A stretch of DNA of 64,000 nucleotides from an uncultured Bacillales bacterium. GTDB lineage: Bacteria; Bacillota_I; Bacilli_A; RF39; UBA660. The position numbers and the translations under genes are program-made. This document shows positions 3,314 through 56,041 of the stretch, piece by piece (position 1 is the stretch's first letter; every line of letters starts with the position of its first letter). The notes beneath the pieces were generated by a model that did not search any database, was not told the DNA's origin, and saw only the letters and a program-made list of their open reading frames with translations. The stretch spans positions 1,581 through 65,580 of the forward strand of contig CAMUMB010000001.1 in NCBI GenBank assembly GCA_947089915.1, read 5' to 3'.

Positions 3314-5359
3314 CTATTTTTGTAAATATTTCTTTAAAATATTATGTAATTCATTACTATCAATTGGTTTCGATAAATAATCATCGAATCCAGATGCCAA
3401 ATAAGCTTCCTTCTTTCCTACAATCGCATCTGCTGTTAAAGCAATTACAGGTATATTAAATTTTTTATCTGCTTTTAACTGTTTTAATGTTTCTGTTCCA
3501 TCCATTTCTGGCATCATCTGATCTAATAGTATCAAATCATATGGATTTCCTTCTTGAATCAAATCAATACATTCTTGTCCACTTTCTACTTTATCAATGG
3601 TAACTTGATAAGGTTCTAGTAAACGCGTTGCGACTTTCAAATTGAGTTTATTATCATCTACAACAAGAATGCGTTTTCCAGAAGCATCAAAAGGAGTCGC
3701 TTTTCTTTTTCTTACCTTGTGAATACCCAAATCACCAATTGGTGTTTCATCAATGATTTTTTGCGTCACTGTTACAGAAATAGTCGTTCCTTTCCCAACA
3801 ACACTTTCAACGGTTAATTCTCCTTTTAACAAATCAATTAATTTCTTAACAATGGATAAACCTGTATTAGAAGTAATATTATCTGATAGAATTTCACTCA
3901 TCTTTTCTTGCGACATTCCCATACCTGTATCAGTTACTTCTAATGTCAATTTATAATTAGATTTTAATACTTCCCCTTTGGCTTTTAATGTAATTTGCCC
4001 AGCATCTGTATAACGAACGGCATTATCCAGTATATTGGTCATAATCTGACGGAACTTACCACCATCTCCTAACAAAGAAGTCGGAATACTTTCTTCTATC
4101 TCTGTTTGTAAATGAATTTCCTTCTTACCTATTCTTTCTTTGGTAAGGGCAATCAAATCTTTTAGTATTTTTGCAACATTGTATTCTTTTTCATCTAAAA
4201 CTAAAATACCCTTTTCTACTTTAGAAATATCTAGGATTCCATCAATAATTTCTAATAAGTTATTACTGGCACTATTGATATTATCCAAATCTTCTCGAAC
4301 GGGAGTAGATAGTTCCTCTTCCAAAGCCGATTCACTTAATCCAATAATGGCATTTAATGGTGTCCGAATTTCATGAGACATGATAGATAAAAATTCTGAT
4401 TTCGCATCATTTGCTTTCTCGGCTTGTTTTAGAGCATCTTGTAATAACGCATTTTGTCTTCTCATATATTCTGCGTTTTCAGTTACATTTTTAGTTAAAA
4501 TAGTAACTTTTGTCTCTCCTTTACTTACTGTAAAGAAAGCAGTACTTTCCAAATACGTATCTGGATTTTCTTTTAATCGGTAACGAACAGAAATTGGATC
4601 TAACGTTTCTTTTTCTACCAATTCTTTGAAATGATCCATAGAAAATATATCTAAAATAGATGCCTGATCTTCTTCTAATATATAACGGTCTACCATTTCT
4701 TGAAAAGTATGTTCAAATTCGCCAGTTGTATCATTTCCTAAATAAGTAGCATCTTCTTTTAATTTATGAAAATTCATTTCACCTGTTAATACATCTACAC
4801 TCATTTCCATATCATAAGAAATAGATGTAATTTGATTCAATTGTTGTTCTCTTGCTTTGATATCCTTAGTTTGAGATACGAGTAAATGTTGTTGATCATG
4901 TTCCGTTGTAACATCGGATACCAAAATTACATCGTATTGGGAATCACCCTCTAGAAATGGATAGATTTTAATTTTAATCCATCTTGTATGTTGATAAAGA
5001 GGATTGTGATAAGAAAACATTTGTGTTACATATTCTTTTATCCCATCCCAACTCCGTAATTCATTTTGTACAATTGGTGTATGAAAGATTTCTTCAATGA
5101 TTTCTAATTCTGTTTTTTCTTTTTCGATTTCATGCAACCCCAATACATCATATACATTTTTCGTAATATAAATAATATCCCGTTTGTTATGGTCACACAA
5201 AAGGTAAATCGTTTCCGAATTTTTGACAAGAGAATCAAATAATTTATTACGATAATGTCCGCCCTTATGTTTTAAAATACGATAAATAAGTATAACAAAA
5301 ACGAATAAAATAATTGCGATTAAAAAAAACATATTTCTATTCAGTCCATCCAATAACAT
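3314..5359 (-). CDS. Hybrid sensor histidine kinase / response regulator (N-terminal TM, PAS-like region, HisKA, HATPase_c, C-terminal receiver)
   Basis: H-box SHEIRTPLNAIIGLSE. N/G boxes NILDNAVRYT and DTGMGM. Receiver domain ILVVDDNKLNLKV...DLILLDQMMPEMDG...IPVIALTADA. SD AAAGGAG upstream of ATG. Confidence 0.85.
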   Translation of the reverse strand: MLLDGLNRNMFFLIAIILFVFVILIYRILKHKGGHYRNKLFDSLVKNSETIYLLCDHNKRDIIYITKNVYDVLGLHEIEKEKTELEIIEEIFHTPIVQNELRSWDGIKEYVTQMFSYHNPLYQHTRWIKIKIYPFLEGDSQYDVILVSDVTTEHDQQHLLVSQTKDIKAREQQLNQITSISYDMEMSVDVLTGEMNFHKLKEDATYLGNDTTGEFEHTFQEMVDRYILEEDQASILDIFSMDHFKELVEKETLDPISVRYRLKENPDTYLESTAFFTVSKGETKVTILTKNVTENAEYMRRQNALLQDALKQAEKANDAKSEFLSIMSHEIRTPLNAIIGLSESALEEELSTPVREDLDNINSASNNLLEIIDGILDISKVEKGILVLDEKEYNVAKILKDLIALTKERIGKKEIHLQTEIEESIPTSLLGDGGKFRQIMTNILDNAVRYTDAGQITLKAKGEVLKSNYKLTLEVTDTGMGMSQEKMSEILSDNITSNTGLSIVKKLIDLLKGELTVESVVGKGTTISVTVTQKIIDETPIGDLGIHKVRKRKATPFDASGKRILVVDDNKLNLKVATRLLEPYQVTIDKVESGQECIDLIQEGNPYDLILLDQMMPEMDGTETLKQLKADKKFNIPVIALTADAIVGKKEAYLASGFDDYLSKPIDSNELHNILKKYLQK

Positions 5360-5387
5360 ACACTTCGCTCCTTTTCCTACTATATAG

Positions 5388-5417
5388 ATTATAGTCTAAT
5401 TCCGTCTTTTCTGTCAA
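5388..5417 (-). promoter_or_regulatory. Sigma-A-type promoter (TTGACA-N18-TATAAT) for the hybrid kinase gene
   Basis: Minus-strand TTGACA (5417-5412), 18-nt spacer, TATAAT (5393-5388), about 30 nt upstream of RBS/ATG at 5359. Confidence 0.45.
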
Positions 5418-5453
5418 GCAAACCAAGAAAAAAGATAGATGTTTCTCTACCTT

Positions 5454-6524
5454 TTAAAATACACGTTTTCTTAGGAAAGATGGAATATCTGTTTCATCTG
5501 TTCCACTATCTTGTTCATTGTTATCTTCATCTTTCATTTCTTCTCTTCTTGTGAAACTACGAGAATTTTCTTTGTTATTGGATTCGAATCCTGTTGCGAT
5601 AACAGTTACAATGATTTCATCTGTTAGATTTTCATTGATGACTGCTCCAAAAATAGTATTGATATCTGTATTGGCAGAAGTACGAATAACATCAGCTGCC
5701 TCTTCTACTTCAAATAAAGTTAAATTTGGTCCTCCTGTTACATTGATAATCGCATCGGTTGCGCCACTAATACTCGTTTCTAATAATGGACTTTCAACTG
5801 CTTGTCTTGCAGCTTCTGTTGCACGATTTTCACCAATTCCCATTCCAATTCCAATTAAAGCATTACCACGTTTTTCCATAACAGCTTTGACGTCTGCGAA
5901 GTCTAAGTTAATTAAACCTGCAACGGCAATCAAATCAGAGATTGATTGTACCCCTCTTCTTAGGACATTGTCTACTTCTTTGAACGAATCGACAAGTGAA
6001 GTTGATTTATCAATAATTTCTCTTAAACGATCATTTGGAATAATAATTAAAGTATCGACATGTTTTTTTAATTCTTCTAATCCAGCAAGCGCTTGATCCA
6101 TTCTTTTCTTTCCTTCAAAGGAGAATGGTTTGGTTACAATTCCAACTGTTAAAGCACCCATTTCTTGCGCGATATCAGCAATCACTGGAGCAGCACCTGT
6201 TCCAGTTCCACCACCCATACCACAAGTGATGAATACCATATCAGCACCTTCTAAAGCGGCTTCAATTTCATTACGGCTTTCTAAAGCAGCTTCTTTTCCA
6301 ATTTGGGGATTCGCCCCTGCTCCAAGTCCGCTAGTTAATTCTTCTCCAATTTGTATTTTAATAGGAGCTTTAGAATTATTTAAAACTTGTAAGTCAGTAT
6401 TGGCTACAATAAAGTCGACTCCTTTTAATCCTGATTCAATCATACGGTTAACAGCGTTGTTACCACCACCACCAACACCGATTACTTTAATTTTTGCTAA
6501 TTGATCCATTTCTAATCCAAACAT
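5454..6524 (-). CDS. ftsZ: Cell division GTPase FtsZ
   Basis: [15 protein letters not shown] tubulin signature and [14 protein letters not shown]7-loop region. C-terminal conserved tail [16 protein letters not shown]. Confidence 0.96.
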
Positions 6525-46021: not shown

Positions 46022-47760
46022 TTATCGCACTTTACACTTATATTTTGATTTATTTGGTATACTTTCCTTATCGATTGGTGAAATCGTATAATTATGCAAA
46101 AGTTCTACTATTTTTGTCATTTTATTTAAGGCAAGGTTATCATTTGTTGGACAATCTAATAATTCATTTAATCTGGTCCAAACAAATTGTGCATCTTCTT
46201 GTTTTTCTGAATCTAAGCTTTGCATTTGCTGCAATATATAAAATTGTATTTCAATTATTTCATATGGAAAGATATCTTTAATTAAGATTTTTTCTTTCCG
46301 ATTTTGATAAGCGGAAACTATTTCTAAATTTTGTTTTTCTAATTCTTGACTATATTCTGCATCTGCCTTTTTTGTAACTGGTTTTTGCACATCTATTGGA
46401 GTATCTTCTTTTGTTTGACAATTCAATTCGCTCTCTTTTTCTGTTCCATGTGAATTCGAATTATTTTTACCATTTTCTAAATTAAGATTAAGTTTAGTCT
46501 TCTGTACTTCTACCAATTTTTCAAAATCTTGAACAATAGACTTCCAAATACTCTGTTCTTCTTCAGTTAATAAAACTGTTTCATCTAATTTATCATAAGT
46601 AGGTCCATATAACTTAACGATTACATCATAGTATTTTTTAGTATGTTCATTCCACCACTCAATTTGGAGTATCGCATATTCTTTATCTTCTTCCTTGCAA
46701 TATTCAAACATACTTGTTTTTCTTTTTCGCCCAACTATTGTTTCATTCAAATTTTCTCTGTTTAAATCGCAAGAATTTGAATTTTCAGATTTTAGAGATT
46801 TTATACCTTCCTCTATTGTTTTGTAAACAAGAGAAAGATTACTATATACTGTTTTTTTTCACATTTTAAAATACCTGCAACTTGGTCTATAGAATATTTA
46901 GGACGATCAATTCCATTTATATATGTAAAAACAATTTTTAAATCTGTTGAAAAATCATCTAAAATTTCTTGTAACTGTTCTTCTGTCATGTTAAATTGAG
47001 ATAAAAATTCCTCTTTTCCACTATATATTTTGGGTATATCTGTTGAATTCAAATTATCTTTAGTATCTTTTAAAGTGGCAGAAACTGAATTGGCTTTTTT
47101 ATGATCTTCAGGAATAACCTTTTTTTGAATTGGTACAATCTCAGGATTCTTTTTTTCTGGAATAGGGATTGTTATATTTTCTATCATTGTAATATCTCGA
47201 TTTTCTAATAATTTCCCTGTTTGATATGCTTCTAATGCATGATTAACCGCATTTAAACATTTCACTACCTCATCATTACTACATCTTAACTTATCTGCAA
47301 TTTTATAAATATCTAATTTCTTCTTATAATACCCTATAAAACAAGATTTTTGAATTTTAGGTAAGGTATTCAAAATAGCATTGATTTCCGCTACTGTTAC
47401 TTCATAAGTTTGCAAGATATTGCTAATACTATGATAAGTTTTTACATTACTATTTTGATAATTGACTGGCAATTCAAATTTATGGATAAAATAGTTTTTA
47501 ATTTGATAGAAGGAACAACCTTTTTGTTTTAATATCTCTGCAATCAAAAGATAGTTTTCAAATTGAAGTGCACTTTTTTGAAACAATAATTCTTCTGATT
47601 CTGTAAGTACTGCCTTATTATTTTCCTTTAAATAGTTTCCCCACTTTTTTGAAAATATCTTACGAATCGTAAATGGAATAGCGCTATAGACACAATCAAT
47701 TAGATCTCCACTAAAATCTTTATAATATGTATAAATATTTTTTTCATCACGATAGTTCAT
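46022..47760 (-). pseudogene. Gene for a protein with sigma-70 region-4-like HTH, split in two ORFs (46813-47760 and 46022-46750) by a frameshift at an A8 homopolymer (T8 on plus strand, 46852-46859)
   Basis: An extra A in the run makes one continuous ORF of about 570 aa that reads directly into the downstream ORF. The downstream ORF has only a TTG start and no SD of its own. HTH LPKIQKSCFIGYYKKKLDIYKIADKLRCSNDEVVKCLNAVNHALE. Confidence 0.6.
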
Positions 47761-47803
47761 ACAAATCACTCCTTAGTTTTAAAGACAATAAAAAAGAGGG
47801 TGT

Positions 47804-47815
47804 CCCCCCCCCCCC
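47804..47815. repeat. C12 / G12 homopolymeric tract in the 5' leader of the sigma-like gene (G12 on the transcribed minus strand)
   Basis: Read directly. About 45 nt upstream of ATG 47760. Followed on the minus strand by ACA-CCCTC-TTTTTT. Confidence 0.9.
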
Positions 47816-47895
47816 GTTTACAAATAGCAAACCTTTATATTTTTATACTACGCAAACTATATTACAATTGAATTGTAACCCTTTTTATTGCTAAT

Positions 47896-47924
47896 ATAAT
47901 ACCATTATTTTTTTATTTTGACAA
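47896..47924 (-). promoter_or_regulatory. Sigma-A-type promoter TTGTCA-N17-TATTAT for the sigma-like gene. Start of a roughly 130-nt leader containing the G12 tract
   Basis: tgacaa 47919-47924, ataata 47896-47901 on plus strand. Homologous to promoter at 56042-56070. Confidence 0.5.
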
Positions 47925-49250: not shown

Positions 49251-49742
49251 TTATTTTTTATAGGTTTTTTGCTTTTCTAATAAAGATTCTAACTTATGAT
49301 TAAAAACAACTTTTAAATCATTTTGATCTGGATACTTATTATTTACTTCTTTGCATGTTAATATAACCTGTTCTAACCACAAAAATAATTGTTCTAAAAA
49401 ACTATTGGCAGTTTCGATACTTCCTATATTGTATCTTCTAAAGAATTGATCTAGTATTTGAAATTGTGCCATCTCGTAATATTCCATATTTTCATCTTTT
49501 AGTTTTTCTAATACGGGTATTAAATATTCTCCTTGACAAAAAGGCAATGAGGCATTACATTCATAATTTAAATTTAAATCTGGCTTTTCAAAATCTCTTT
49601 TTCTGTTATAGTAATTTCTTAAATTTGAACAAATTTCCAAATGTCTATCGCTAAACTCTTTTTGGTAAAAGTCCGTACTACCCTCACGCACTGCTAACAT
49701 CACTTTATTTACAATTTCTAATTCAAATATTGGTTGATTCAT
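49251..49742 (-). CDS. Hypothetical cytoplasmic protein, paralogue A (163 aa)
   Basis: MNQPIFELEIVNKVM... and conserved SLPFCQGEYLIPVLEKL block shared with the adjacent gene. Confidence 0.5.
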   Translation of the reverse strand: MNQPIFELEIVNKVMLAVREGSTDFYQKEFSDRHLEICSNLRNYYNRKRDFEKPDLNLNYECNASLPFCQGEYLIPVLEKLKDENMEYYEMAQFQILDQFFRRYNIGSIETANSFLEQLFLWLEQVILTCKEVNNKYPDQNDLKVVFNHKLESLLEKQKTYKK

Positions 49743-50271
49743 TTTTTACTTCCCTTCTAAAATCGGGTCTTTGGCGATTTATTTTTTGCTTTACTTCGGA
49801 TTCCTCATAATATTCTTTCAATATTATACAGACTTTTGAATATAAGATAGATTGAAGTTCATCTTCATCCACAAGCAATCTATGATTTTCATCATATGTA
49901 TCTACATATTTTTTAAGATAGGAAAATAAGTTACCCAAAAGACTTTCATCGGATATTGGTACTTCTGTAGAACAATAAATATAGAACTTATTTAGTATCG
50001 ATTGCAATGCCAAATCATAGTATAAGCTACTCTCTTCTCCTAACTTTTTTAATAAAGGTACTAAATAATCTCCATTACAAAATGGCAAAGACTCAATACA
50101 GCATTTTGCTTTTTGATCTTTATTTTTTTGGTCAAAAGAGATTGTTCTTAATACATAATTCACATCACAGTGACTATAAGATAATTCTCTTTGATAGAAA
50201 TCCACTTTCGCATGGCTCATTTTTTCCATAATTTCATTTACAATAACTAATTCATAAATTGGTTGATTCAT
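49723..50271 (-). CDS. Hypothetical cytoplasmic protein, paralogue B (182 aa)
   Basis: MNQPIYELVIVNEIM... and SLPFCNGDYLVPLLKKL. ATG at 50271 has GGGAGTGA SD. The ORF-track upstream extension overlaps the tuf 3' end. Confidence 0.5.
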   Translation of the reverse strand: MNQPIYELVIVNEIMEKMSHAKVDFYQRELSYSHCDVNYVLRTISFDQKNKDQKAKCCIESLPFCNGDYLVPLLKKLGEESSLYYDLALQSILNKFYIYCSTEVPISDESLLGNLFSYLKKYVDTYDENHRLLVDEDELQSILYSKVCIILKEYYEESEVKQKINRQRPDFRREVKNESTNI

Positions 50272-50341
50272 TTTATTCACTCCCCTGATATTTTTAGTAT
50301 ACAAGAATATACAGAAAAAAACAAGCCTTTGCTTGTCTTTA

Positions 50342-51526
50342 TTATTGAATAATCTCTGAAATGTTACCAGAACCAACTGTTCTACCACCTTCACGAATTG
50401 AGAACTTAGTTCCATTTTCGATAGCGATTGGAGCAATTAATTCAACAGTCATTTCAACATTATCTCCTGGCATTACCATTTCAACACCTGCAGGTAATTC
50501 AATAACACCTGTAACGTCTGTAGTTCTGAAATAGAATTGTGGACGGTAATTTGAGAAGAATGGAGTATGTCTTCCACCTTCTTCTTTGGTTAAGACATAA
50601 ACTTGTGCTTTGAATTTCTTGTGTGGAGTAACTGAACCTGGTTTTGCTAATACTTGACCACGTTCAACTTCTTCACGAGCAATACCACGTAATAATACTC
50701 CAGCATTGTCTCCTGATTCTGCATAGTCTAATTGTTTACGGAACATTTCAATTCCTGTAACAACAGTCTTCTTAGTATCTTTAAGACCAACGATTTCAAC
50801 TTCATCGTTAAGTTTCAATTGTCCTCTTTCTACACGACCTGTAACAACAGTTCCACGTCCAGTAATTGTGAATACATCTTCTACTGGCATTAAGAATGGT
50901 TTATCAGTATCACGTGTAGGAGTTTCAATCCAATTATCAACAGCATCCATTAAATCTAAGATTGCCTGCTCATACTTAGCATCTCCTTCAAGAGCTTTTA
51001 AAGCTGAACCACGGATAATTGGAGTTTCATCTCCTTCAAATCCGTATTCATTTAATAATTCACGAATTTCCATTTCAACTAAGTCTAATAATTCTTCATC
51101 ATCAACCATGTCGCATTTGTTCATGAATACAACCATACGAGGTACACCAACTTGACGTGATAATAAGATATGTTCACGAGTTTGTGCCATAGGTCCATCT
51201 GTAGCAGCAATAACTAAGATTGCTCCATCCATTTGTGCTGCACCAGTAATCATGTTCTTTACGTAGTCAGCATGTCCTGGACAGTCTACGTGAGCATAAT
51301 GTCTCTTTTCTGTTTGATATTCCACGTGTGAAGTGTTGATTGTGATTCCACGATCTCTTTCTTCTGGAGCTTTATCAATGTTTGCATAATCTACGAATTC
51401 AGCGAATCCTTTTTTAGATAATACGTTTGTAATAGCCGCAGTTAAAGTAGTTTTACCGTGGTCTACGTGTCCAATTGTACCAATGTTAACATGTGGTTTT
51501 GAACGATCGAATTTTTGTTTTGCCAT
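50342..51526 (-). CDS. tuf: Elongation factor Tu
   Basis: [27 protein letters not shown] motifs. 394 aa. Confidence 0.97.
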
Positions 51527-53754: not shown

Positions 53755-54222
53755 TTACCAACGGTAGTGAGCAAATGCTTTATTTGCTTCTGCCATTTTA
53801 TGTGTATCTTCACGTTTTTTTACAGCTGCACCAGTTCCTTCTGATGCATCAATAATCTCGTTTGCTAAGTTTTCAGCCATTGAATGACCTCCTCTTAAAC
53901 GAGAATAGTTTACTAACCAACGAAGGGCTAATGCTTGACTACGATCAGCTTTTACTTCAATTGGTACTTGATAGTTTGCTCCACCTACACGGCGTGATTT
54001 TACTTCAAGTGCTGGTTTGATGTTTTCCATGGCTTTTTCAAAAACTTCCATTGGGTCTTGTCCTGTTTTTTCTTTTACCATGTCAAATGCACCATATAGT
54101 ATTTTTTGAGCAGTTCCCTTTTTTCCATCATTCATGATTTGATTAATCAATTTAGTAACCAATTTAGAATTGTAGATTGGATCTGCTAAAACGTCTCTTT
54201 TGACTGCACGTCTTTTACGCAT
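53755..54222 (-). CDS. rpsG: 30S ribosomal protein S7
   Basis: 155 aa. [27 protein letters not shown].. Confidence 0.95.
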
Positions 54223-54809: not shown

Positions 54810-55916
54810 CTATTCACTTAATTGTAGCCATACATTATAGATATTAGAAGTTATTTCAGTGTTACCGCTTTTATTTCTCCTTATTTCAAAATATCCAAGT
54901 CCGTCTATTGTTAATATGTTGGTAGACAATACCTTTCTATCAAGTACTTCTGTATACCCTCCAGAGGCACCGGTTTTAAACAAAACTGGCACCGCAAGTA
55001 TCTGCCGACTACTGTTATCTAGCAAATTTACCTCTTCATAAAAGAAATATTCAAAGGCTAGATTAACTATTGGTTGATCTTCTGGAACATGTGATGTTGC
55101 AGATACATCTACATAAATATATGCATAATCAGTCAAATTGATTGGATCTTTCGTATATATTCCCCGACGTTCTTCATTATCTCCTGTAATTTCTAAATAT
55201 AAATAATCTTCTTGTGCTGTCAGTTCTGCTTTATAAGTCTCAAACTCTGCTAGCATTTCCCCATCTAATATAAGATAGTCTGCTAGTTTCTTCGTATCAG
55301 AACATACTTCTGTTTTGCCATTCGTTGTACATACCTTTGCATATGCTGCTTCTGATGGATAAATACATGTATTATTTTCATTCATACCTAAAGCAGTAAT
55401 ATCATCTTCTGTTTTGCCGTAATAACATTTCGTTTCTTTTACAAATGTATTCATTTGTGATTCATAATTTAATATCACTTGAGTATCTGTAAAATTTTTG
55501 CTACTCCAATTTGGTTTGGGCAAATATACGCTAGTATCTCCCACACAATCCTCTCTATCTATTATCTTAGGACTTTCATCATAACCTTTTTCAACACAGT
55601 ACTTTCCTATTTTAGCAATTATACTCATTTGATTGTTTTCTCCTATTACGAGTATTCCACTTTCTGGTTTAGATCCTTTATAAGTTAAGATATCACCTGT
55701 TAAATCAATTGTTTGTTGATATTCTTCTCCTTCTAACATCGATTCCAATTGATAGTTCTCTGCTGCTTCTAAGATCCCATTTACCGATTCTATTGCTGCT
55801 CCTCTTCTTGACTTTTCAATCACATCCATTATCATTGGCGTTGCGATTAGTGCGATTACTGCTAGTATTACGATAACTGCTAATAATTCTACTAATGTAA
55901 ATCCTTTTTTCTTCAT
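54810..55916 (-). CDS. Type IV pilin-like protein (prepilin-type N-terminal cleavage/methylation domain, 368 aa)
   Basis: MKKKG-FTLVELLAVIVILAVIALIATP: class III signal peptide with G(-1), F(+1), E(+5), followed by a large secreted domain. GAGAGGAAGG RBS. Confidence 0.75.
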   Translation of the reverse strand: MKKKGFTLVELLAVIVILAVIALIATPMIMDVIEKSRRGAAIESVNGILEAAENYQLESMLEGEEYQQTIDLTGDILTYKGSKPESGILVIGENNQMSIIAKIGKYCVEKGYDESPKIIDREDCVGDTSVYLPKPNWSSKNFTDTQVILNYESQMNTFVKETKCYYGKTEDDITALGMNENNTCIYPSEAAYAKVCTTNGKTEVCSDTKKLADYLILDGEMLAEFETYKAELTAQEDYLYLEITGDNEERRGIYTKDPINLTDYAYIYVDVSATSHVPEDQPIVNLAFEYFFYEEVNLLDNSSRQILAVPVLFKTGASGGYTEVLDRKVLSTNILTIDGLGYFEIRRNKSGNTEITSNIYNVWLQLSE

Positions 55917-55962
55917 TCAAATCTTCCTTCCTCTCATAATAAACCATAAAAAAAGGGGTATA

Positions 55963-55973
55963 CCCCCCCCCGT
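55963..55973. repeat. C11 / G11 homopolymeric tract in the 5' leader of the pilin-like gene, within palindrome GGGGTATACCCC...
   Basis: Read directly. On the minus strand: G11-TATA-CCCC-TTTTTTT, about 45 nt upstream of ATG 55916. Homologous context to 47804-47815. Confidence 0.9.
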
Positions 55974-56041
55974 TCACAAATAGCTAACTTGTGTATCTAT
56001 GCTATATGCAAACTATTTTATGATTTATTTTTGATAATTTC

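Follow-up and report, generated by a model that had tools for sequence, protein, structure and literature searches.

Transcriptional slippage at a run of nine A residues (A9) takes place in Thermus dnaX, and Shigella mxiE is reportedly rescued by transcriptional slippage at a T9 run. Programmed -1 ribosomal frameshifting on the heptamers A_AAA_AAG or A_AAA_AAA is used by E. coli dnaX and by IS3-family transposases. A lineage-specific frameshift that is rescued by slippage, with orthologues that stay in frame, has been described for tssM1 of Citrobacter rodentium, which carries an A11 run (PMC4256274). Coding poly-A tracts are both hypermutable and slippage-prone, and slippage in such tracts has produced unitary pseudogenes in AT-rich bacteria (Baranov et al. 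2005, PMC1088944). In Campylobacter jejuni, the regulators flgR and flgS are reportedly inactivated through insertions or deletions (indels) in short A/T tracts, with variants and revertants within populations (Hendrixson 2006, 2008, cited in PMC8355987). Here we describe a gene on the minus strand of a 64,000-nucleotide stretch of DNA (the window; contig CAMUMB010000001.1, positions 1,581 to 65,580) from an uncultured mouse-gut bacterium. Its two open reading frames (ORFs) are the halves of one ancestral gene for a putative DNA-binding regulator, split at a run of eight A residues (A8). We consider it probable, at roughly 60%, that this frameshift arose recently, became fixed and abolished the function of a regulator gene that is prone to decay, possibly with an unselected, leaky rescue.

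As in tssM1, mxiE and Thermus dnaX, a single A added to the mRNA would restore the ORF. Like mxiE the gene codes for a regulator, and like tssM it is frameshifted in one lineage, its orthologues being in frame. Unlike those slippage-rescued genes, the locus has only A8, which is under the usual threshold, the run is not conserved across species, and a rescue is a prediction from sequence. With E. coli dnaX and the IS3-family transposases it shares an in-phase heptamer of lysine codons and a -1 frame that corresponds to the functional C-terminal part; it differs from them in having neither an upstream Shine-Dalgarno (SD)-like stimulator nor a properly spaced structure, and in that the site is not conserved among homologues. 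The loss of a single A in a run of eight or nine, with intact orthologues, is likewise the pattern of the poly-A pseudogenes of AT-rich bacteria. In contrast to these, the tract here appears to have arisen recently through a synonymous-like D to E change, the deletion is fixed species-wide and the downstream part is undecayed in most strains. As with flgR and flgS, an indel within a few A/T residues puts a regulator out of action; the difference is that only one A-run length was found here across samples.

A single gene interrupted by a frameshift at the A8 run

Positions are those of the window, and the zero frame is that of the ATG at 47760. The first ORF (ORF1, 46813..47760) is preceded by the SD sequence AAGGAG (47769..47774), 8 nt ahead of the ATG. 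It encodes a truncated product of 315 aa, made up of an N-domain, a first helix-turn-helix unit (HTH1), the first half of a second unit (HTH2) and 12 out-of-frame residues before a TAG (46813-46815). The A8 run that is the site of the frameshift lies at 46852..46859 (zero frame ...TGT GAA AAA AAA CAG...). Beyond it the -1 frame continues for 278 sense codons and a stop (46022..46858) and encodes the rest of HTH2, one copy of a repeat of ~88 aa and a C-terminal domain. One A added to the run, or two deleted from it, gave an uninterrupted ORF of 579 aa with its stop at 46022-46024, a repair that amounts to +1 nucleotide in DNA or RNA and is equivalent to a -1 ribosomal frameshift. The first-pass annotation had proposed that this T8/A8 tract splits one gene and that one added A joins both ORFs, and the repaired ORF together with colinear orthologues bears this out. 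Its coordinates and description were otherwise accurate, and only counts needed refinement, from 14 codons past the run to 12 sense codons plus the stop, and from about 570 to 579 aa.

Past the run, the -1 frame contained no stop in 278 codons and the other two frames contained 25 and 34, and none of 20,000 shuffles was free of stops (mean 26.7 stops). Ahead of the run, a TGA overlapping the last codon before it shuts the same frame. The window holds 24 A/T runs of at least 8 nt, of which only this one breaks an ORF; a second site flagged by the scan (53815-53821) is probably only the junction of two adjacent genes next to S12, putatively S7 and EF-G. No paralogue of the split gene was found within the window. 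Gene callers annotate the downstream product as a protein of 242 aa (ORF2); both ORFs should instead be annotated together, as one frameshifted gene and not as two hypothetical proteins.

A genome scan identified a syntenic orthologue (locus L001) in an uncultured 'Bacillales' metagenome-assembled genome (MAG), with 88% amino acid identity and a single ORF of 837 aa. A more distant orthologue (protein P0001, locus L003; 46% identity), obtained by protein search, is a single ORF of 812 aa, and L012/P0006 and L011/P0002 are likewise single ORFs. The neighbours in L001 and L003 are those found in the window, a divergent FemAB-like gene upstream and enolase downstream, and L012 shows the same synteny. 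The orthologues at these three positions are one gene each, as the idea of a split single gene anticipates, and not two genes with ribosome binding sites of their own. Alignment at the junction (window LKCEKKTVYSNLSLVYK, L001 LKCDKKTVYNNLSLAYK, P0001 LKCDEKTVYVYLNDAYK) revealed colinearity throughout the repaired reading, in which CEKKTVYSNLSLVYK matches CDKKTVYNNLSLAYK of L001 and CDEKTVYVYLNDAYK of P0001 and KTVY is invariant.

Because the DNA of L001 at this position reads GAT AAA AAA ACC, an in-frame A7, the simplest history is a change of GAT to GAA followed by the loss of one A. The first step (D to E) would have joined the preceding A, the substituted T and the A7 to make a run of nine, A9, that was mutable; one A would then have been dropped by slippage during replication to give A8, and this deletion is now fixed. 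We infer this order of mutations, A9 first and then A8.

An identical 315-aa product was found on six other contigs, namely two MAGs, two ENA assemblies of one project (ERZ777305 and ERZ777316), and the MEGAHIT and Logan assemblies of the mouse-gut run DRR014785. These contigs are 99.75-99.9% identical to the window, and the run was A8 in 7/7 assembled contigs including the window, representing three other samples and several assemblers. The six are not copies of the window because they differ from it at 46488 and in the length of a poly-G tract in the leader. At 46488 all six carry an A to G change that replaces N by S in the -1 frame; this is the only conspecific single-nucleotide polymorphism in the gene, it is non-synonymous and it lies downstream of the break. 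The exact 579-aa protein expected from A9, in either the N or the S variant, was absent among ~15 billion catalogued proteins, and the split products were present. L005 (3908-3938) and L008 (1328-1358) have, at the equivalent of window position ~46488, gained 41 nt between direct repeats of 10 nt (GTCTTAATTT), an insertion that disrupts the downstream frame a second time. The inserted sequence had no match elsewhere in the window or the loci.

A probable loss of function and the competing explanations

We examined the DNA of ten species-level loci. The gene was intact in six of them (L001, L003, L010, L011, L012 and the tandem paralogues L014/15) and broken in four, each in a different way: at the A8 run in the window species, by a frameshift away from long homopolymers that leaves ORFs of 630 and 195 aa in L013 (~3351-3369), by an in-frame TGA after codon 64 in L016 (~1396-1398), and by a 1-nt deletion near codon 39 in L017 (~878-893). 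The copies in these last three species may be orthologues or paralogues. An alternative genetic code in which the TGA of L016 would be read as Trp is unlikely, the neighbouring genes being intact under code 11. Among relatives available as protein sequence only, P0053 is apparently frameshifted and P0061 is an apparent deletion remnant with its N-terminus joined to the extreme C-terminus. Lesions of such varied site and kind mark recurrent loss and not a conserved simple-sequence switch.

Beyond the split, its fixation and the intact orthologues, which are observed directly, we infer a loss of function and, possibly, a leak. Since the frameshift falls after K303, where the predicted recognition helix of HTH2 begins, the 315-aa protein made by normal decoding would lack that helix and all that lies downstream, and would be without a functional HTH2, repeat and C-terminal domain. 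The gene is often lost in related lineages, and the window allele would be a young one of pseudogene type; a small full-length fraction, made through transcriptional slippage or through -1 ribosomal frameshifting on A_AAA_AAA, would then be an unselected leak. A decaying pseudogene had been mentioned as an alternative in the first-pass annotation, and it fits both the second, 41-nt insertion and the independent disruptions in relatives. Taken alone, this would be a routine outcome, in which a lysine-rich gene in an AT-rich genome gained a long A run and lost a base.

Several observations weigh against a simple loss of function. The 278 downstream codons are still fully open. The ratio of non-synonymous to synonymous substitution rates (dN/dS) of the repaired window gene against L001 was 0.315 upstream of the break and 0.321 downstream, and the replacements polarised with L003 numbered 5 upstream and 6 downstream in the window lineage, against 7 and 8 in the L001 lineage. 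Downstream dN/dS is thus not relaxed and replacements are not in excess. Two readings fit these data equally: either the break came late compared with the separation from L001 (dS ~0.15-0.2), or the downstream codons continue to be translated and selected. Moreover, the heptamer stands in exactly the required phase, and a -1 slip or an extra A in the mRNA would reproduce the conserved ...E K K T V Y. A9 is the usual threshold for slippage, but A8 is productive in some systems, such as apoB and some insertion sequence (IS) elements (PMC1088944). Lastly, a single sample supplied the 41-nt insertion, and L005 and L008 may be built from the same reads.

Some of these points would be explained by lineage-specific recoding, in which the fixed A8 yields both a 315-aa and a 579-aa product through slippage or -1 frameshifting and both products, or their ratio, are functional, as reported for Citrobacter tssM and Shigella mxiE. 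We regard this as unlikely, even if it fares best among the alternatives. A slippery heptamer of the form X_XXY_YYZ is present in the zero-frame phase (GA A_AAA_AAA C at 46852-46858), and slippage on it yields the conserved CEKKTVY. The -1 frame is shut just ahead of the run and open beyond it, the A8 is invariant across contigs, and the downstream dN/dS is not relaxed. In addition, one added nucleotide restores a long conserved ORF (579 aa), rescued lineage-specific frameshifts have a precedent (PMC4256274), and A8 runs are sometimes productive (PMC1088944). Against recoding, E. coli RNA polymerase, the one tested, slips little on short tracts of A and needs more than seven A residues for appreciable slippage (PMC6260861), the run falls short of the usual nine A/T residues, and the frameshift arrangement was absent in the orthologues L001, L003/P0001, L012/P0006 and L011/P0002. 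No SD-like stimulator was found ahead of the heptamer. The only downstream hairpin (centroid -12.2 kcal/mol; minimum free energy (MFE) of the 82-nt fragment -12.3, z -2.1) starts 12 nt past the run, where 5-9 nt would be expected, and it is also encoded in the in-frame L001. We therefore rejected it as a stimulator of programmed -1 frameshifting, being badly spaced and shared with an in-frame orthologue. Furthermore, one strain carries the extra out-of-frame insertion downstream and relatives are plainly disrupted elsewhere in the gene. Were the A8 shown to be decoded by slippage, a Firmicute would offer a naturally occurring case of recoding near the minimum run length.

Reversible phase variation, the pattern that the first-pass annotation had considered a fit, was judged improbable. 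According to this explanation, slipped-strand mispairing would toggle the run between A8 (OFF) and A9 (ON), the poly-G tract would independently tune the leader, and the regulator would be a contingency gene of which mostly OFF cells have been sampled. Slippage from A9 to A8 is mechanistically easy, the leader G tract counts 8, 10 or 12 residues in near-identical contigs and 9 to 12 in other copies, and flgR and flgS of Campylobacter are regulators known to be switched by poly-A/T mutations (PMC8355987). However, the run did not vary in length in any of the seven contigs and no A9 allele or protein is on record. The lesions of the relatives, moreover, differ in site and kind, including a nonsense codon and a frameshift off any long homopolymer, and share no common tract. 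As for the leader, the predicted hairpin energy is unaffected by the G count, and the poly-G differences are maybe partly technical. The claim of a phase-variable regulator at the A8 run thus finds no support, and of the two independent simple-sequence switches that had been proposed, what stands is that the leader G tract is length-polymorphic.

A more elaborate possibility joins both elements: the A8 would be a newly evolved recoding site that fixes the ratio of a short product, without the HTH2 recognition helix, to the full-length regulator, and the previously undescribed poly-G leader (TTTGCTATTTGTAAAC, G8-12, CCCYC, U-run), which a pilin-like gene also has, a length-tunable attenuator. 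We consider this combination improbable; if it were true, regulators of a new class, with multiple sigma region 4-like units, would be under stochastic control at two levels.

It is very improbable that the halves are two genuine separate genes with ORF2 translated from the TTG at 46750 or a later ATG, even if gene callers annotate its 242-aa product. As noted in the first-pass annotation, ORF2 (46022-46750) starts with a TTG without an SD upstream, and none was found ahead of the next ATG either. Between the A run and the TTG, 36 codons of this frame are free of stops and show homology to the orthologues, the split bisects a single folded domain, and the orthologues are single ORFs. Least credible of all is a homopolymer sequencing or assembly error that hides a true A9, which had also been listed as a possibility: homopolymers are error-prone and some contigs have ~3-4x coverage, but A8 recurs in at least three other samples, whether assembled by metaSPAdes, MEGAHIT or Logan or available as MAGs, and the other 23 long A/T runs leave their ORFs intact.

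Protein architecture and family

The first-pass annotation had recognised a sigma-70 region 4-type HTH in the N-terminal part, and the type of fold is right. The segment it quoted (aa 125-171) is a weak instance, and HTH2 is the better one. HTH1 (47227..47442, aa 107-178) is sigma region 4-like and homologous to HTH2, as found by jackhmmer within the family. In the window protein, the Pfam Sigma70_r4_2 match is weak (E 0.008, 16.2 bits against a cut-off of 25.7), and Pfam and NCBIfam together gave weak matches of the sigma region 4 or YlxM type over aa 117-182. HTH2 (46787..47031, aa 244-325 in the repaired frame) has the sigma-70 region 4 fold, and the frameshift lies inside it. The AlphaFold (AF2) model of these residues in the repaired frame had a predicted local distance difference test (pLDDT) score of 90.9. 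Its best Foldseek matches in the PDB were region 4 of SigL, of SigE (bound to -35 DNA) and of SigA, with a probability of 1.0 and template modelling (TM) scores of 0.62-0.77. The HTH2 of P0001, the orthologous counterpart of the segment that the frameshift interrupts in the window, is above the Sigma70_r4_2 threshold (31.6 bits, E 1.3e-7), and a profile of 24 HTH units of the family matched region 4 of SigA and FliA weakly (E 0.01-0.05).

In the HTH units the fold and the signature L..e.r.cf.yyYGi...s..eIa..L.vs...V are those of sigma-70 region 4 (PF08281 Sigma70_r4_2, -35 binding of the extracytoplasmic function (ECF) type). In contrast to Sigma70_r4_2 proteins, the proteins described here have several region 4-like units each, tandem repeats of ~88 aa, a distinct C-terminal domain and no detected region 2; Sigma70_r2 was not found by Pfam or NCBIfam in the window protein and eight relatives. 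The model of the whole protein is poor (pLDDT 48), too poor for judging region 2, and its weak matches to SigA (E 2e-3, TM ~0.1-0.2) were discounted as unreliable. The window protein is therefore not to be classed as a sigma factor but as an uncharacterised, putative modular DNA-binding protein.

The ~88-aa repeat is present in a single copy in the window (46478..46741; SMFEYC...KLYGPTYDKLD...LTEEE). Its consensus, S.[FY].YF.eeDK..V...IE.[WY]K.....YY....KLYG..YD.L.....LT.eE, occurs in 1 to ~12 tandem copies across the family, and no relative of the repeat was found in Pfam or the PDB. Both closest orthologues have four copies (in L001 at 5000-6100), and P0002 also has repeats; three of four were lost in the window lineage by in-frame deletion. 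The C-terminal domain (46025..46309; ILIKDIFPYEIIEIQ...) was found in many family members. An exhaustive hidden Markov model search retrieved 82 relatives, none of them named, which are assembled from an N-domain, one to three region 4-like HTH units, 1-12 repeats of ~88 aa and one of two C-terminal domains. The analysis has in this way brought to light an unnamed family with sigma region 4-like HTHs and tandem repeats, which occupies a fixed locus beside enolase and has been disrupted time and again among gut Bacilli. Another species (L014/L015, 1-4008) carries two tandem members upstream of enolase; the second is without an N-domain and comes with a promoter-like site and a ribosome binding site of its own.

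The poly-G leader

Upstream of the gene lies a promoter-like site (47896..47924) consisting of TTGTCA, a spacer of 17 nt and a TG-extended TATTAT, a match to the consensus only (10/12), which is kept in L001 and L003. Given this site, a G tract of 12 residues (G12, 47804..47815; read as C12 on the plus strand) would fall, 44 nt ahead of the ATG at 47760, inside a transcribed leader of ~130 nt. Alignments delimited a conserved leader element (47786..47864) in the order ATAGTTTGC, ~22 nt, TTTGCTATTTGTAAAC, poly-G, ACA, CCCTC and T6. Within it the G tract pairs with CCCTC as the 5' side of a terminator-like hairpin (47790..47815), which is followed by T6; terminator-like hairpins gave 5 matches, against 0.5 expected. 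A G+C-rich hairpin with a U-run, the layout of an attenuator, is hence located between the promoter-like site and the start codon. A role of the poly-G as promoter spacer was rejected, as the -35/-10 match is upstream of the tract and no consistent -10 was seen by eye past it.

Among the conspecific sequences, 99.75-99.9% identical, the tract has 12 residues in the window and 8 or 10 in the other contigs; L005 has a scaffold gap at the poly-G. The orthologues carry G10 (L012), G11 (L003 and L017) and GGGAGGGGGG (L001). The differences in length between short-read assemblies may be partly technical. For G8, G10 and G12, the predicted MFE of the hairpin was -11.9, -12.1 and -12.0 kcal/mol respectively. 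A role of G12 as a switch is therefore hypothetical, and the tract is an arm of a conserved terminator-like hairpin whose predicted stability does not depend on the G count.

Orthologues with as little as ~37% protein identity have the leader element upstream (L001 3899-3975, L003 3901-3976, L012 1132-1209, L017 ~666-735). The 16-mer TTTGCTATTTGTAAAC is invariant and contains three GTTTRC/GYAAAC boxes, which could be a candidate protein-binding site. The element matched no Rfam family, whether the gathering threshold was applied or E values as high as 5 were allowed, RNAalifold gave no covarying pairs, and a covariance model found no further copies in the window or the loci. The 5' pairing in the MFE structure of the window leader is not kept in L003 or in the second copy, and no conserved antiterminator structure was found.

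This second copy (55944..56020, minus strand) consists of ATAGTTTGC, ~22 nt, TAGCTATTTGTGAAC, G9 (55963-55971), TATA, CCCC and T7. A TTGTCA-17-TATAAT promoter-like site precedes it, and downstream follows a gene (54810-55916, minus strand) for a protein of 368 aa with a prepilin-type N-methylation motif, so that the same leader precedes two unrelated genes. The exact pilin-like protein was absent from the protein catalogue look-up. A conserved leader, with a terminator-like hairpin that includes a long, length-polymorphic G run and is common to a pilin-like gene, is a further by-product of the analysis.

Just past the -10 of the promoter-like site of the split gene, we noticed a perfect palindrome, TTACAATT-C-AATTGTAA (47873-47889, minus strand), which is present in L001 and L017 and not in L003 or the second leader copy, and which is a possible operator or 5' hairpin. 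The stretch from tuf to the FemAB-like gene holds two neighbouring, paralogous small ORFs (49251-49742 and 49723-50436, minus strand) with the sequence pattern MNQPI[FY]EL.IVN... and no Pfam match. The pair is kept in L001, and L003 has one such ORF together with a MerR-type gene.

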